A stretch of DNA of 64,000 nt from Verrucomicrobiia bacterium (GTDB lineage: Bacteria; Verrucomicrobiota; Verrucomicrobiia; Limisphaerales; JADLHS01), in the NCBI GenBank assembly GCA_023953615.1, contig JAMLJH010000002.1, forward strand, positions 396,592 through 460,591, in the 5' to 3' direction. The position numbers and the translations under genes were made by a program. The notes under the pieces are model-generated. The model was not told where the DNA came from. It did no database searches and saw only the letters and a list, made by a program, of their open reading frames with translations. This document shows positions 25,884 to 31,766 of the stretch, in pieces. Each line of letters begins with the position of its first letter. The stretch's first letter is position 1.

Positions 25884-26132
25884 ATGAGGTACTATTGTCG
25901 ATATTGCGGTTCATCCTTTGCGAGCGTCTCTGCTCTAACCGCTAACACGTGTCATCGTCATCCAGACGGCGCAGCCAAGGGAAAGCATGCTTTATACGAG
26001 GGCGGCGAAAAGAAGCAATACACTTGCAAATTTTGTGGTTCAAATTTCTCGAGCCTATCGCTATTGACGATAAATACGTGTTACCGTCACCCAAATGGCA
26101 GCGGCAAAGGTAAACACGAAGCTGCATTGTGA
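25884..26132 (+). CDS. Small tandem Cys/His finger protein (2 repeats)
   Basis: 82 aa with two copies of Y-x-C-x2-C-G-S-x-F-x-S-x-S-x-L-T-x-N-T-C-x-R-H-P-[DN]-G-x2-K-G-K-H. Confidence 0.6.
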   Translation: MRYYCRYCGSSFASVSALTANTCHRHPDGAAKGKHALYEGGEKKQYTCKFCGSNFSSLSLLTINTCYRHPNGSGKGKHEAAL

Positions 26133-28144: not shown

Positions 28145-28426
28145 ATGCCTCAAGCAATTGGATTAATTGAAACGCGCGGACTCGTGGCTCTCGTGGAGGG
28201 CACGGACGCGATGCTGAAAGCGGCCAACGTGGAACTCGTCGGCCCCATGACCCAGGTCGGCAACGCTTTGGTCACCGCGTGTGTGGTGGGCGACGTGGCC
28301 GCGGTCAAGGCGGCGACGGATGCCGGCGCGCAAGCCATCAAAGCCATCAAAGGCGAACTGGTCAGCGTGCATGTCATCGCCCGTCCGCACAACGACGTGG
28401 CGGCGGTGTTGCCGAAGAAGAAGTAA
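28145..28426 (+). CDS. BMC-H shell protein
   Basis: QAIGLIETRGLVALVEGTDAMLKAANV...VIARPH. Confidence 0.93.
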   Translation: MPQAIGLIETRGLVALVEGTDAMLKAANVELVGPMTQVGNALVTACVVGDVAAVKAATDAGAQAIKAIKGELVSVHVIARPHNDVAAVLPKKK

Positions 28427-28428
28427 GC

Positions 28429-28496
28429 GTGGCTGCGCTCGTGAGAGCGCGGCTGACTTGCATGTAAAATGCGGCGCTCTCACGAGTCGCCGCCAC
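28429..28496 (+). promoter_or_regulatory. Long intra-operon stem-loop after the third BMC-H gene
   Basis: 13-bp perfect core (28438-28450 with 28474-28486), extendable to ~22 bp with a few mismatches. It lies between the shell-gene stop and the BMC-P start. Confidence 0.65.
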
Positions 28497-28508
28497 AAAG
28501 GCAAAACT

Positions 28509-28820
28509 ATGTTCTTGGCCAAAGTCGAAGGCTCGGTGGTCGCCACCAAGAAAGACCGGAACATGTCGGGGCGCAAACTGTTGTTGCTTCGTCCGCAACT
28601 CGTGGATGAAAAAGACCCGACGAAATTTCGCCCCGGCGCGAACACCATCGTGGCCGTGGACGCGCTCGGCGCGGGGTTGGACGAGATGGTGATGTTCACG
28701 CAGGGCAGCAGCGCGCGGCTCGCGCCCGGCATGAAAGACGCCCCGGTGGATGCCGTCATCATCGGCATCGTGGACAGCGTGGACGTGCTGGGGAAACAGA
28801 TTTATAGCGGTAGAACGTGA
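28509..28820 (+). CDS. BMC-P pentameric vertex protein (EutN/CcmL family)
   Basis: MFLAKVEGSVVATKK...AVDALGAG...AVIIGIVDSV. Confidence 0.9.
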   Translation: MFLAKVEGSVVATKKDRNMSGRKLLLLRPQLVDEKDPTKFRPGANTIVAVDALGAGLDEMVMFTQGSSARLAPGMKDAPVDAVIIGIVDSVDVLGKQIYSGRT

Positions 28821-29239
28821 GTAAACAAAACAACAATCAAGTTGTAGGAAACATTGGTCTTTACTACGTGTGCTATCGCTTGTCTCAACGTGGTTGGAAT
28901 GTGATGCCAACTGCTAGAAACGCGCGAGGGATAGACGCGTTGATTTATAGCCAGGATGCAACACGGGTTAAAACTATCCAAGTTAAGGCGCTCTCTAGGA
29001 GAAGTCCGGTGCCTCTCGGTTCCAACCTGGACAATCTTTTCGGAGATTTCATCGTTGTTTGCCAGAGTGTAACGACGAAGAAGCCAGCCTGTTATGTTCT
29101 TACGCCAGAAGAAGTCAGGCGATTAGTGCATAAAGGAGAAAAGGACGGCAAAACCAGCTTTTGGTTGCAGCCAAAGCATTACGAAAAAACTGAGTTTCAT
29201 GAGAACTGGGACAGGATAGGTTCGGGATCCAATGCTTGA
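28817..29239 (+). CDS. PD-(D/E)xK-type nuclease-fold protein (putative)
   Basis: 140 aa with GNIGLYYVCYRLSQRGWNV...ARGIDALI...IQVKA, giving the D...(Q)xK motif order. It is AT-rich, and its GTG start overlaps the BMC-P stop (GTGA). Confidence 0.45.
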   Translation: MSKQNNNQVVGNIGLYYVCYRLSQRGWNVMPTARNARGIDALIYSQDATRVKTIQVKALSRRSPVPLGSNLDNLFGDFIVVCQSVTTKKPACYVLTPEEVRRLVHKGEKDGKTSFWLQPKHYEKTEFHENWDRIGSGSNA

Positions 29240-29248
29240 TCAAGTAAG

Positions 29249-29280
29249 TTTATGAGCACAGCGAGCGAGACTTTGAACCG
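29249..29280 (+). pseudogene. Orphan duplicated 5' end of the aldehyde dehydrogenase gene
   Basis: tttATGagcacagcgagcgagactttgaaccg matches 30091-30122 at 27 of 32 nt (MSTASETLNR versus MSTVNETLIR). Confidence 0.7.
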
Positions 29281-29356
29281 GAATGCTCCAAGCTTTGAAA
29301 GATATTTCAAAGGGGGGGGACAAATTGTCCCCCTCCTTTCTAAATTCCAATCTAAT

Positions 29357-29776
29357 TCAAATGTGCTTCGGTGGGGGGTGCCGTGCGCGGAGAATTTCTT
29401 CGTGACGGATGGCTTGGGCCACGTCGCGGTTCAAATTCAAAGCGGCAACGGTGGCGCGTCCAGTCGGACTGATGCCGACCACGCGGACGCCGTCCCAGCG
29501 GAAATGCAATCGCCAAGAATCACGGCGGGGACTGAACAATCTGACTTCATTCCCCGTTTTGGGATCAATGGCTTTCATTCGCGCTCCTTTGCGAAGCGAG
29601 CACGAAACACACGCCAGCGCCAGATTGTTCAGCGTCGTTGCGCCACCAGCATCCGTCGGGATGACGTGGTCAATATGAAAAGTCGCCTCTTGGGAAACCT
29701 GCGAAAGTCCGCAGTACTCGCAACGATTTCCGGCACGCTGGATGGCCTGACGCCGCAGTTGCGCCGGGATGGTCAT
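29357..29776 (-). CDS. HNH endonuclease
   Basis: CEYCG...HIDHVIP...GGATTLNNLALACVSCSLRK motif set. Confidence 0.85.
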   Translation of the reverse strand: MTIPAQLRRQAIQRAGNRCEYCGLSQVSQEATFHIDHVIPTDAGGATTLNNLALACVSCSLRKGARMKAIDPKTGNEVRLFSPRRDSWRLHFRWDGVRVVGISPTGRATVAALNLNRDVAQAIRHEEILRARHPPPKHI

Positions 29777-29780
29777 GTGA

Positions 29781-30005
29781 TCAGTGGCGTCCGTTGCTCA
29801 ATCGTTGCGAACGCAAACGCAACAGGGAAAGCAGGTCAGCCAATTCAACCAACCCCTCAGCCTCCCGCTTTTCGGCGAGTGTCAGGCGATTCCCTTGGTC
29901 TTGCTTGTCCAGCAACGCGTGCAGCCGTTTCTCCACGCCTTTTGGCAGGCGAAACTTTGCCAGATCGCCCGGCATCTCAACTATCAGTTCGATGGCTTGA
30001 GACAT
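29781..30005 (-). CDS. Small helical protein upstream of and co-oriented with the HNH gene
   Basis: 74-aa ORF ending 4 nt before the HNH start. Family not recognised. Confidence 0.5.
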   Translation of the reverse strand: MSQAIELIVEMPGDLAKFRLPKGVEKRLHALLDKQDQGNRLTLAEKREAEGLVELADLLSLLRLRSQRLSNGRH

Positions 30006-30093
30006 ATTTACTTTCCGTTTCTGAGGCCGAATTTAGCAGAAGTGGGTCGGGGTGTCCAAGCTCGGAATTCCCTTCGTTAAAAAGCAACTATTT

Positions 30094-31590
30094 ATGAGCA
30101 CAGTGAATGAAACTTTGATCCGCGACGTGGTGGCGGAAGTGTTGGGACGCATCGGCGGCGCGACTGCCTCCAGCACCACGACGGCGAATCCAGCTCCGGC
30201 CAAAAGTGAATCGCGTAATGTGCGTGCGCCGCAGGTGACCGTGCCGGCGTCGCGCGGAAAATTCGGTGTGTTTGCCACGGCGAACGAGGCGTGCGCGGCG
30301 GCTCAGGAAGCTTTTTTGTTGTTGCGAGAAAAGGGCGTGGCGGCGCGGCGCAAGATCGAGGGAATCGTCAAGACGTTGGCGGAGAAAAACGCCGAGGCTT
30401 GGGGCAAACTCGAGTTGGATGAAACGAAAATTGGTCGGCTCGATCACAAGATTGAGAAGCTCAAAATCATCCGGCTGGTGCCCGGTGTGGATTGGCTGCG
30501 ACCGGAAGCTTTGAGCGGCGATCACGGCATCACCCTGGAGGAATTCACGCCGTTTGGCGTGGTGGGCGCGATTACGCCAAGCACCCATTCCATTCCCACG
30601 TTGAGTGGCAACATTGTCAACATTGTCGCCGCCGGGAATGCGGTGGTGTTCAATCCGCATCCCAGCGCGGCGCGTTGCGCGGCGGCGGCGGTGCGAACTT
30701 ACAACGAAGCGATTTATCGCGAGACCGGCATCGAGAACATCGCGTGTCTGGTGGAGCAACCAACGCTGGAATCCTTCGACGCGCTTTGCAAAAACGAGTA
30801 CACGAAATTGCTGCTGGTTACTGGCGGTCCGGGTGTGGTGAAAGCGGCGATGCAAACCGGCAAGCGCGCCATTTGTGCCGGACCGGGGAATCCGCCGGTG
30901 CTCGTGGATGACACCTGCTGCGCGACTCGCGCGGCGAAAGCGATCATTGCCGGGGCCGCCTTTGACAACAACCTCCTCTGCATTGGCGAGAAGGAGGTTT
31001 TCGTTTTGGACAGCGTGGCGAACAAGTTGATGCAGCGCCTGGCCGAGAACGGCGCGGTGAAGTTGAGCGACGCGCAATTGGAAAAACTGACGCAGGCGGC
31101 GTTCACCTTCAAGCCGGGGCAGGGCGGCGGTTGTTCTCACGCCAGCGTGAACAAGGAATTCATTGGCAAGAATCCTGAAGTGCTGGCTCAAGCGGCCGGA
31201 CTGAATCTGCCGATGGGCACCCAGTTGTTGTTCGCCGAAACGTCCGCCGACCATCCCTTCGTGCAGGAGGAACAGATGATGCCGTTTCTGCCGATTGTGC
31301 GGGTGAAGAGCGTGCGCGAAGGCATCCAACTGGCCGTGCAGGCCGAGCACGGTTATCGCCATACCAGCGTGATTCATTCGCATGACGTGGAGCACATGAC
31401 CGCGATGGCGCGGGCGTTGGACACCACGTTGTTTGTAAAGAACGGTCCTTCACCCGCAGGCCTGGGCCTGGGTGGCGAAGGTTATTTGAGTTACTCCATC
31501 GCCACCCCAACTGGTGAAGGCGTGACCAATCCGCGCACCTTCACGCGCGTCCGGCGATGTGTGATGGTGGACAATCTGAGAATTTATTAA
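30094..31590 (+). CDS. CoA-acylating aldehyde dehydrogenase (PduP/EutE-like)
   Basis: ALDH fold with the catalytic Cys context (NNLLCIGEKE), an N-terminal amphipathic helix (TLIRDVVAEVLGRIGG) and an Ala/Thr/Pro linker resembling an encapsulation peptide. Confidence 0.88.
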   Translation: MSTVNETLIRDVVAEVLGRIGGATASSTTTANPAPAKSESRNVRAPQVTVPASRGKFGVFATANEACAAAQEAFLLLREKGVAARRKIEGIVKTLAEKNAEAWGKLELDETKIGRLDHKIEKLKIIRLVPGVDWLRPEALSGDHGITLEEFTPFGVVGAITPSTHSIPTLSGNIVNIVAAGNAVVFNPHPSAARCAAAAVRTYNEAIYRETGIENIACLVEQPTLESFDALCKNEYTKLLLVTGGPGVVKAAMQTGKRAICAGPGNPPVLVDDTCCATRAAKAIIAGAAFDNNLLCIGEKEVFVLDSVANKLMQRLAENGAVKLSDAQLEKLTQAAFTFKPGQGGGCSHASVNKEFIGKNPEVLAQAAGLNLPMGTQLLFAETSADHPFVQEEQMMPFLPIVRVKSVREGIQLAVQAEHGYRHTSVIHSHDVEHMTAMARALDTTLFVKNGPSPAGLGLGGEGYLSYSIATPTGEGVTNPRTFTRVRRCVMVDNLRIY

Positions 31591-31759
31591 CCACGGATGG
31601 ACACAGATGAACACGGATTAGTACGGGACGCTGGCTTTGGCCCGCTTCAGTGTTCGCGCGTCAACGGCGTTCGAAAATTGAAGCGACCTGAAGGCCGCGC
31701 TCCTGAGCGTTCCGGTTTCATCCGTGTTTATCCGTGTTTATCCGTGTTTATCCGTGGTT
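31589..31759. repeat. MITE-like element with ~30-bp terminal inverted repeats built from 10-nt subrepeats
   Basis: The left arm 31589-31618 matches the reverse complement of 31730-31759 at 26 of 30 nt. The right arm holds about four tandem tccgtgttta units. It fills the gap from the ALDH stop to 8 nt before the next start. Confidence 0.7.
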
Positions 31760-31766
31760 TGATTTT

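Follow-up and report, generated by a model that had tools for sequence, protein, structure and literature searches.

Why does the start of an aldehyde dehydrogenase (ALDH) gene occur twice at one locus, once at the beginning of the gene itself and once, in diverged form, on the far side of a small nuclease cassette? The question is raised by a 64,000-nucleotide (nt) stretch of a Verrucomicrobiia bacterium (contig JAMLJH010000002.1), here called the window, whose coordinates count from its first letter. In a bacterial microcompartment (BMC) operon of the window, the junction between eutN and the ALDH gene holds an inserted gene (orf140), an HNH endonuclease gene with a partner gene (p74) and two copies of the ALDH start. 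We favor, with a probability of about 0.6, the reading that copy 1 is an orphaned remnant of an ALDH start that arose by recombination between two alleles of a cassette hot spot at this junction. The features of the junction, from left to right, are as follows (aa, amino acids; types B and C are alleles described below; loci are given by L numbers).

28515..28820, plus strand: gene for a BMC vertex protein of the eutN/CcmL type, forming the conserved left flank (Pfam EutN_CcmL, E = 6.8e-26), with orthologues in related loci
28817..29239, plus strand: orf140, in-line inserted gene of 140 aa with a predicted nuclease fold, between eutN and copy 1
28833..29304, no strand: strain-specific segment of 472 nt (orf140, a 12-nt spacer, the orphan and 24 nt); blastn homology with L169, L174 and L175 stops at 28832 and resumes at 29305
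29249..29280, plus strand: copy 1, the probable orphaned ALDH start (ttt, ATG and 9.7 codons in all, MSTASETLNR)
29281..29304, no strand: 24 nt between the orphan and the Bro-N relic, holding the proposed illegitimate junction; weak resemblance to Bro-N of type B on reading the sequences
29305..29356, plus strand: relic of a Bro-N/PDC-S13-like gene, continuous in type B, including a conserved internal hairpin (29309-29339)
29357..29776, minus strand: HNH endonuclease gene, 139 aa (Pfam HNH, E = 1.3e-12; HNH_5, E = 1.3e-9)
29781..30005, minus strand: p74, partner gene of 74 aa, 4 nt upstream of the HNH gene; predicted two-helix hairpin
30091..30122, plus strand: copy 2, the functional ALDH start, with a conserved N-terminal helix and putative encapsulation peptide

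Two copies of the ALDH start

Direct comparison of the two 32-mers, 29249-29280 and 30091-30122, confirmed the 27/32 identity reported in an initial annotation of this DNA. To judge this similarity against chance, copy 2 was searched for in 300 windows simulated with a first-order Markov model; the best match on either strand was at most 21/32, and no further site in the real window scores 22/32. With the same sequence context present in locus L178, a chance match was rejected as practically impossible. The similarity ends sharply on both sides of the repeat. The first 13 nt, which include the start codon, are identical, and identity is broken thereafter.

Copy 2 belongs to an open reading frame (ORF) at 30094-31590 that matches Pfam Aldedh (E = 3e-25). 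Its N-terminus, MSTVNETLIRDVVAEVLGR, fits the pattern M-S-x-V-N-E-x-L-I-R-D that is common to 87 compared orthologues, in which a low-complexity linker comes after the conserved N-terminus. The protein thus combines the Aldedh domain, the conserved N-terminal extension and the BMC operon location of a BMC-associated ALDH, the encapsulation peptide being putative. Copy 1 opens an ORF of 281 aa, antisense to the HNH and p74 genes, which begins with MSTASETLNR, continues into non-ALDH sequence and has no Pfam match. The initial annotation was therefore right in taking copy 2 as the real ALDH N-terminus and copy 1 as a start that runs into unrelated sequence.

It was also right in arguing against a simple, transposon-type target-site duplication. 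Library scans (Pfam, NCBIfam) of the cassette proteins found no transposase, integrase or recombinase domain, and a search for terminal inverted repeats at the cassette ends found none. Moreover, the repeat is 32 nt long and diverged, and in the family the repeats measure anywhere from 31 to 286 nt. Integration at an attachment (att) site in a gene end was rejected as well, with no recombinase domain found and only the first 13 nt of the repeat identical.

The annotation had read the divergence between the copies as an argument for a copy from a donor lineage, and this argument did not hold. Copy 2 carries the family consensus, and copy 1 alone departs from it, at four of the five mismatches; the fifth mismatch (GAG vs GAA) differs between lineages. 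Three of the four changed codons in copy 1 are non-synonymous (V4A, N5S and I9N). Among the 87 N-termini, N is invariant at position 5, position 4 holds V, I, L or M, with a single A, and position 9 has I or V. In both copies, Thr3 is written with the uncommon codon ACA. Since the changes confined to the orphan lie at residues conserved among the 87 N-termini, the divergence mainly represents decay of an unselected orphan. The evidence for two origins of the copies comes instead from a comparison of alleles.

Alleles of the eutN/ALDH junction

The exact p74 protein was found on more than 24 Logan contigs; sequencing runs with the exact gene include SRR12234145, SRR24928191, SRR34578575 and SRR27197518. 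Contigs of type A are 100% identical to the window across 28401-30200. Contigs of type B (L169, L174 and L175) match the window at 28401-28832 and 29305-30200, with 28833-29304 replaced by 181 nt in the blastn alignment. The replacement is the 5' end of a Bro-N gene (MGEPQPERRIALFQKREVRR...AVFKGVGQIVLPL), which enters the hairpin in frame and continues to the HNH stop; type B reads ...AVFKGVGQIVLPLSKFRSNSNVLRWG from the intact Bro-N 5' end into the stretch that matches window 29305-29356. The cassette therefore sits in a truncated Bro-N gene, in this lineage directly past the internal hairpin. The HNH/p74 cassette of type B is 98% identical to that of the window and occupies the same place, without the orphan. 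In type C, represented by L178, the gene order is BMC-H, EutN, orf140, ALDH. Its orf140 homologue (positions 705-1139) is 82% identical at the aa level, so that two lineages share an in-line orf140 at this junction. The orf140/ALDH junction of L178 reads ...aataatTTTATGAGTGCTGTGAACGAAACTTTGATCCG (in a longer reading, ...aataatTTTATGAGTGCTGTGAACGAAACTTTGATCCGTGAC), with the same "tttATG" context as at the window orphan. This context therefore explains the orphan including its "ttt".

Identity between the window and type B is 98-99% across the operon, apart from two places that hold 22 mismatches (28558-28830, ~92% identity) and 5 mismatches (29316-29349). The mismatch-rich tract around the heterologous segment appears to mark a more distant or foreign origin. 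The beginning of the ALDH gene (30094-30400) is 99.3% identical to type B, and no recombination breakpoint, the sign expected of a functional start imported together with the cassette, was found in it.

Both parental allele types exist, and the proposed fusion joins them as follows. The type C parent would have contributed eutN–orf140–ALDH, with orf140 in line. The type B parent would have contributed eutN–BroN'–hairpin–HNH<–p74<–ALDH, in which the antisense cassette truncates Bro-N just past the hairpin. The window allele would then consist of C on the left, through ALDH codon 10, and of B on the right, beginning ~4-28 nt ahead of the hairpin. Such a fusion would require a single homologous exchange in either conserved flank (eutN or ALDH) and one illegitimate join, with a few bases of microhomology at most, at about 29280/29281, a process corresponding to homology-facilitated illegitimate recombination (HFIR). 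ALDH would have survived because the B part supplied a complete start, and the other start would have left selection and decayed. A eutN–orf140–ALDH allele of the same lineage would be expected to have the ALDH start ATGAGCACAG... The breakpoints at 28832/29305, the diverged tract and the orphan substitutions at conserved residues can be read from the sequences, whereas the mechanism and any direction (resident versus imported start) are inferred. The encoded nucleases may have triggered the breaks.

Measured against this structure, the "homology-anchored insertion" of the initial annotation was broadly right, in that two alleles were probably joined with a homology anchor, but one illegitimate junction has to be added and the bracketed unit is composite. 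The ~810 nt between the copies do carry the HNH gene and the 74-aa gene on the opposite strand; however, ~76 nt of them are not HNH cassette and comprise the Bro-N relic (29305-29356) and 29281-29304, both of which had been missed, as had orf140. Nor do the copies bracket the HNH cassette as a unit, as the orphan sits with orf140 in the separate 472-nt segment. The idea that the cassette was imported with a donor-lineage gene start is retained insofar as the copies trace to two junction alleles, but the orphan travels with orf140 and not with HNH.

Several observations weigh against the fusion. The 24 nt at 29281-29304 fit neither parental allele well and have no match in any fetched locus, so that the junction is placed approximately and more than one event may have been needed. 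No type C allele was found in the same species-level lineage, the flanking genes of L178 being only 73-88% identical. When eutN was compared with an outgroup, the window variants were mostly private and not shared with L178, and pointed to neither allele as the importer. Finally, ALDH-start orphans of 66-67 nt lie at the eutN-proximal cassette edge in L016 and in L096, where the distance to the HNH stop is 8 nt, so that a direct link between the HNH cassette and such duplications can occur.

The variability of the junction among relatives supports the fusion. Among 78 assessable genome loci, the gap between the EutN stop and the ALDH ATG is 45 nt or less in 37 (typically 10 nt), 46-200 nt in 31 and above 200 nt in 10. 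A single ALDH start is present in these 78 loci, including the 37 compact junctions, and in L178. The cargo comprises at least five unrelated genes: p74–HNH (window and L033, with a p74 remnant in L016), Bro-N of ~285 aa on the same strand (L002, L007, L013, L030 and L042), a PDDEXK_3 gene (L054), a 113-aa ORF (L033) and orf140 (window). The ALDH of L033, with HNH cargo, is 96% identical to that of L042, with Bro-N cargo, and the ALDH of L166, with HNH cargo, is 89% identical to that of the HNH-free L012. That very close ALDH relatives carry different cargo argues that the junction is an insertion hot spot with fast turnover. Cassette-bearing and cassette-free loci, whose comparison the initial annotation had proposed, both exist and are interleaved, but type B has the cassette without the orphan.

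Two further observations concern ALDH starts at this junction. The 113-aa ORF of L033 (2580-2925), located right after eutN and without a family match, starts with ATGAGCACTGCAAATGAA (MSTANE), resembling the first six ALDH codons and the MSTASE of the window orphan; it may be another cargo gene on an orphaned ALDH start. Possible ALDH-start relics of 6-18 nt were noted by eye beside eutN in L082, L165, L033 and the Bro-N genes; these are too short to score and were not used.

The Bro-N family is represented by a full-length gene in L030, which matches Pfam Bro-N (E = 7e-15) and the PADLOC defence candidate PDC-S13 (E = 7e-114). The hairpin in the relic has a stem of 13 bp (AAAGGGnnnnnnC AAATT GnnnnnnCCCTTT). 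Compensatory changes occur in 6 of the 13 pairs, 91% of the alignment cells are paired, and the covariation score was reached in 0 of 500 shuffles. The hairpin is conserved in the window, L002, L007, L013, L030, L033, L042, L050 and L169, and L002, L007, L013, L030 and L042 have full-length Bro-N genes with the same hairpin at the junction. It lies within Bro-N/PDC-S13-like coding sequence, and the encoded peptide changes with the stem. The hairpin also coincides with breakpoints, namely that between the window and type B at 29305 and the start of homology between the window and L033, as well as with the contig ends of L013 and L050. A dispersed repeat of the repetitive extragenic palindromic (REP) type was rejected, as there is one copy in the 64 kb and, in 80 related loci, the hairpin occurs only at this junction. 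A consensus scan for standard intrinsic terminators did not call it.

orf140 has a GC content of 44-49%, compared to ~60% in the flanks, and has no Pfam or NCBIfam match. Its family comprises 2273 homologues of ~150 aa without a Pfam model. The top fold match in the PDB for its AlphaFold2 model (mean predicted local distance difference test score, pLDDT, 74) is the homing endonuclease I-Ssp6803I (E = 8.5e-5, template modeling (TM) score 0.56), followed by a SPARDA nuclease, the Eco15I N-terminal domain, Hjc resolvases and EcoRV. The predicted fold is thus PD-(D/E)XK. Seven aligned family members have invariant D40 and Q55-V-K57, with Q replacing the acidic residue of the motif. On the basis of the model, orf140 is a candidate free-standing homing endonuclease or defence nuclease.

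The surrounding operon is of the PVM type, with BMC-H genes, acetate kinase, EutN, ALDH, two further EutN genes and class II aldolase. The best 80 ALDH relatives are nearly all from Verrucomicrobiota metagenome-assembled genomes of the subdivision 3/Limisphaerales/Pedosphaera type. The spacer between ALDH and the second eutN gene (eutN2; 31588-31761) is an inverted repeat of a 10-nt periodic motif, TCCGTGTTTA, present four times at 31711-31760 and in reverse copy at 31588-31632. The same motif occurs upstream of the ALDH start in L165, L050, L054 and L004. Type B has a 121-aa 23S_rRNA_IVP/bAvd-like gene in place of this spacer, which is therefore a second cassette hot spot in the operon. Just upstream of the first BMC-H gene, an 82-aa ORF in a low-GC stretch (25884-26132) contains two copies of a Cys/His-rich motif (C-x-x-C...TCHRHP and TCYRHP).

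The p74–HNH module and rival explanations

The HNH translation shows C19xxC22, H34-x-D-H37, N50/N51 and C57xxC60, that is, the HNH motif with flanking Cys pairs, and the match to Pfam PF01844 covers residues 19-66. The protein has 5713 relatives at E <= 1e-10 and matches weakly to Septu PtuB-type and IscB/Cas9 HNH domains. p74 has 681 homologues and no match in Pfam, NCBIfam, PADLOC or PDB sequences. Its AlphaFold2 model (pLDDT 83) contains helices at residues 22-36 and 43-72 and matches no PDB fold at E <= 0.001. Of 80 metagenome loci, 78 have a p74 homologue immediately upstream of HNH; in the last two, the gene begins too near the contig end for a decision. The two genes are preceded by a promoter-like site:

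30030..30058, minus strand: promoter-like site for the p74–HNH operon (TGGACA, 17 nt, TG-TAAATT)

By eye, a GTCCAA motif is found at a similar distance from the p74 start in the window, L165, L166, L033, L082, L088 and L081. The p74–HNH pair occupies the eutN/ALDH junction in at least 10 sampled lineages (the window, L165-167, L033, L082, L088, L096, L149 and the P0025 contig), where two HNH clades, 57-62% identical to each other, are represented. Elsewhere it occurs between Fe-S/molybdopterin oxidoreductase genes (L081, 76% aa identity), and most of L085-L164 (58-73% aa identity in HNH) have it in unrelated contexts. Judged by sequence, p74–HNH is a widespread two-gene module. We found no earlier description of it in the literature searched, the coverage of which was incomplete.

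At every fetched cassette locus, the 600 nt upstream of p74 were compared with the 600 nt downstream of HNH. The cassette is flanked by significant direct repeats, 31-286 nt long, in 14 of the 77 assessable p74–HNH loci, compared to 4.5-5% of pseudo-cassettes placed elsewhere (Fisher p = 5e-5). Note that the first pseudo-cassette control included tandem BMC paralogues; repeated on non-BMC loci, it gave 4.5%. The enrichment is real but not absolute, because a few of the non-BMC control loci carry other repeats. The downstream copy sets in between -14 and +15 nt relative to the HNH stop in 8 of the 14 repeat-bearing loci. The repeat coincides with a host gene terminus in the nine loci with an assignable reading frame, for example a 3' gene end in L114, L153, L086, L119 and L158 and a 5' gene start in L155, L125 and L096. 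In these nine cases the copies differ at 22, 26 and 60 sites at codon positions 1, 2 and 3 (p = 1.7e-6 vs equal shares); the differences are distributed 3/4/21 in L114 and 1/1/8 in L153, and are nearly only synonymous. The third-position bias suggests that both flanking copies evolved as coding sequence and that one came from another lineage, as if the cassette moved between lineages along with a piece of the neighboring gene. L138, a metagenome contig of 1282 nt, has identical 59-nt ends around p74–HNH and represents either a long, perfect direct repeat that the assembler has collapsed or a circle; it also carries the 3' part of a gene that by eye is dehydrogenase-like. The 286-nt repeat of L110 may be another repeated element, and that of L125 may reflect a paralogous kinase motif.

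We tentatively consider, as a possibility with the odds clearly against it, that p74–HNH is an autonomous mobile module which colonizes host gene ends by way of long, variable target duplications that it generates or carries. The duplications would arise, for example, from widely staggered nicks or from a circular intermediate that carries part of the target. Rebuilding of the interrupted gene would always follow, and the repeats would later permit precise excision and transfer between lineages. If true, a transposase-free mobility mechanism would be shared with restriction-modification complexes, and the eutN/ALDH junction would be a preferred landing site.

Applied to the window, a related explanation is that p74–HNH inserted into the ALDH 5' end with a long target duplication, that the orphan decayed, and that the Bro-N relic and orf140 came later. 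The excess of flanking repeats in the 14 of 77 loci, the far repeat close to the HNH stop in eight of them, the orphans at the cassette edge in L096 and L016 and the identical ends of L138 all speak for it, as does the fact that the concept is documented for restriction-modification complexes (PMC2853133). The window repeat itself exceeds the 30 bp of such duplications and corresponds to a single ALDH start in empty sites. However, we regard this explanation as unlikely. The one unit and one event expected of a long target duplication are not what the window displays: the orphan is 76 nt from the HNH stop with the Bro-N relic between them, and type B has a 98% identical cassette at the same position without an orphan. 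Moreover, the nearest HNH relatives at the junction (L165, L166 and L167; 78-86% aa identity) lack a clear orphan, and the upstream context of the window orphan is that of the orf140/ALDH junction in L178.

Homing has also to be considered, with either nuclease as the driver. Homing of orf140 with co-conversion would have brought orf140, a donor eutN 3' end and an ALDH start into a type B allele, the right end being repaired illegitimately. The similar size and top fold match of I-Ssp6803I, the in-line position at the same junction in L178 and the window, the 92% identity of the eutN 3' end relative to the rest of the operon (resembling a co-conversion tract) and the AT-rich, foreign-looking character of the gene are consistent with this view. 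We nevertheless rate it as improbable, as the fold match is moderate (TM score 0.56, pLDDT 74) and extends to resolvases and restriction enzymes, an invariant Q takes the place of the acidic residue of (D/E)xK in the seven aligned members, and two orf140 loci were compared. Homing by orf140 would, in addition, be a possible trigger for the favored fusion rather than an alternative structure. The initial annotation had proposed intron-less homing by the HNH protein, which would cut the cassette-free eutN/ALDH junction and be copied in with a donor ALDH start. The presence of the cassette at this junction in at least 10 sampled lineages, and of all the closest HNH relatives (78-86% aa identity), would fit such a process. 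Yet equally close relatives reside elsewhere, such as L081 (76%) and most of L085-L164, and both HNH clades as well as unrelated cargo are found at the junction. Furthermore, double-sided homologous repair predicts no duplication, and in this lineage the cassette was inserted into a Bro-N gene and not into an empty junction. We therefore consider HNH-driven homing very improbable.

Relation to known systems

The fusion of two junction alleles resembles HFIR, in which one homologous anchor is combined with one illegitimate join, as documented by experiment for naturally transformable bacteria and E. coli conjugation (PMC3240628). As in HFIR, the window allele would need a homologous flank exchange and an illegitimate junction (from ALDH codon 10 to the Bro-N fragment), foreign cargo lies beside a conserved anchor, and a tract of higher divergence (28558-28830) appears to mark imported DNA. 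Unlike the more usual deletion in HFIR, the event in the window duplicated a gene start, and it is reconstructed here from sequence.

Insertion of restriction-modification complexes with long target duplication, by a mechanism that is unknown, was described by Furuta, Abe and Kobayashi 2010 (PMC2853133), who cite the group's previous comparison of H. pylori genomes and propose a cycle of invasion, amplification and release. Similar to these complexes, p74–HNH is a small nuclease unit without transposase or integrase, and in 14 of 77 loci it has variable direct repeats of more than 30 bp that are single copy in empty sites. In contrast to them, p74–HNH has no methyltransferase, its partner being a 74-aa helical protein, and the window repeat does not surround HNH alone. 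Many p74–HNH repeat pairs are also diverged with third-position bias, which argues that one copy came from another lineage rather than from duplication on the spot.

Free-standing homing endonucleases, such as those encoded by the seg and mob genes of phage T4, undergo intron-less homing. PMC2988022 and PMC2790892 are papers on this subject. The window shares with these enzymes small nuclease genes (HNH and orf140) that close relatives may have or lack between conserved genes, and a raised divergence beside the insert. In contrast, the HNH family is scattered over unrelated sites, without site fidelity, and has an obligate small partner gene; homing, moreover, leaves no duplication. Effector-immunity modules of the Vibrio cholerae type VI secretion system provide a further parallel, as serial displacement leaves arrays of immunity genes, according to the account of these arrays in PMC5361080. 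As far as that account goes, repeated cargo replacement at a fixed locus and the piling up of relics (here the Bro-N fragment and the ALDH start) are common to both, whereas the cargo and the biology differ, the orphan being a non-functional gene start and not a retained immunity gene. The event in the window is thus a variant of known processes and not a new kind of system, the mechanism being the part that we infer.

The repeat is a readable scar, and the history of a hot spot in a metabolic operon can be reconstructed from natural alleles: the empty junction, Bro-N, Bro-N'+HNH, orf140 and the orf140/HNH fusion. An operon gene dependent on an N-terminal targeting peptide (putative for this ALDH) can survive such events, as the incoming piece supplies a complete start. 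Beyond this locus, the survey of p74–HNH widens a phenomenon so far described for restriction-modification systems and offers many natural test cases for its mechanism. In conclusion, p74–HNH appears to be a very common and undescribed module that often lies between long, diverged duplications of host gene termini, and its wider behavior merits systematic study.

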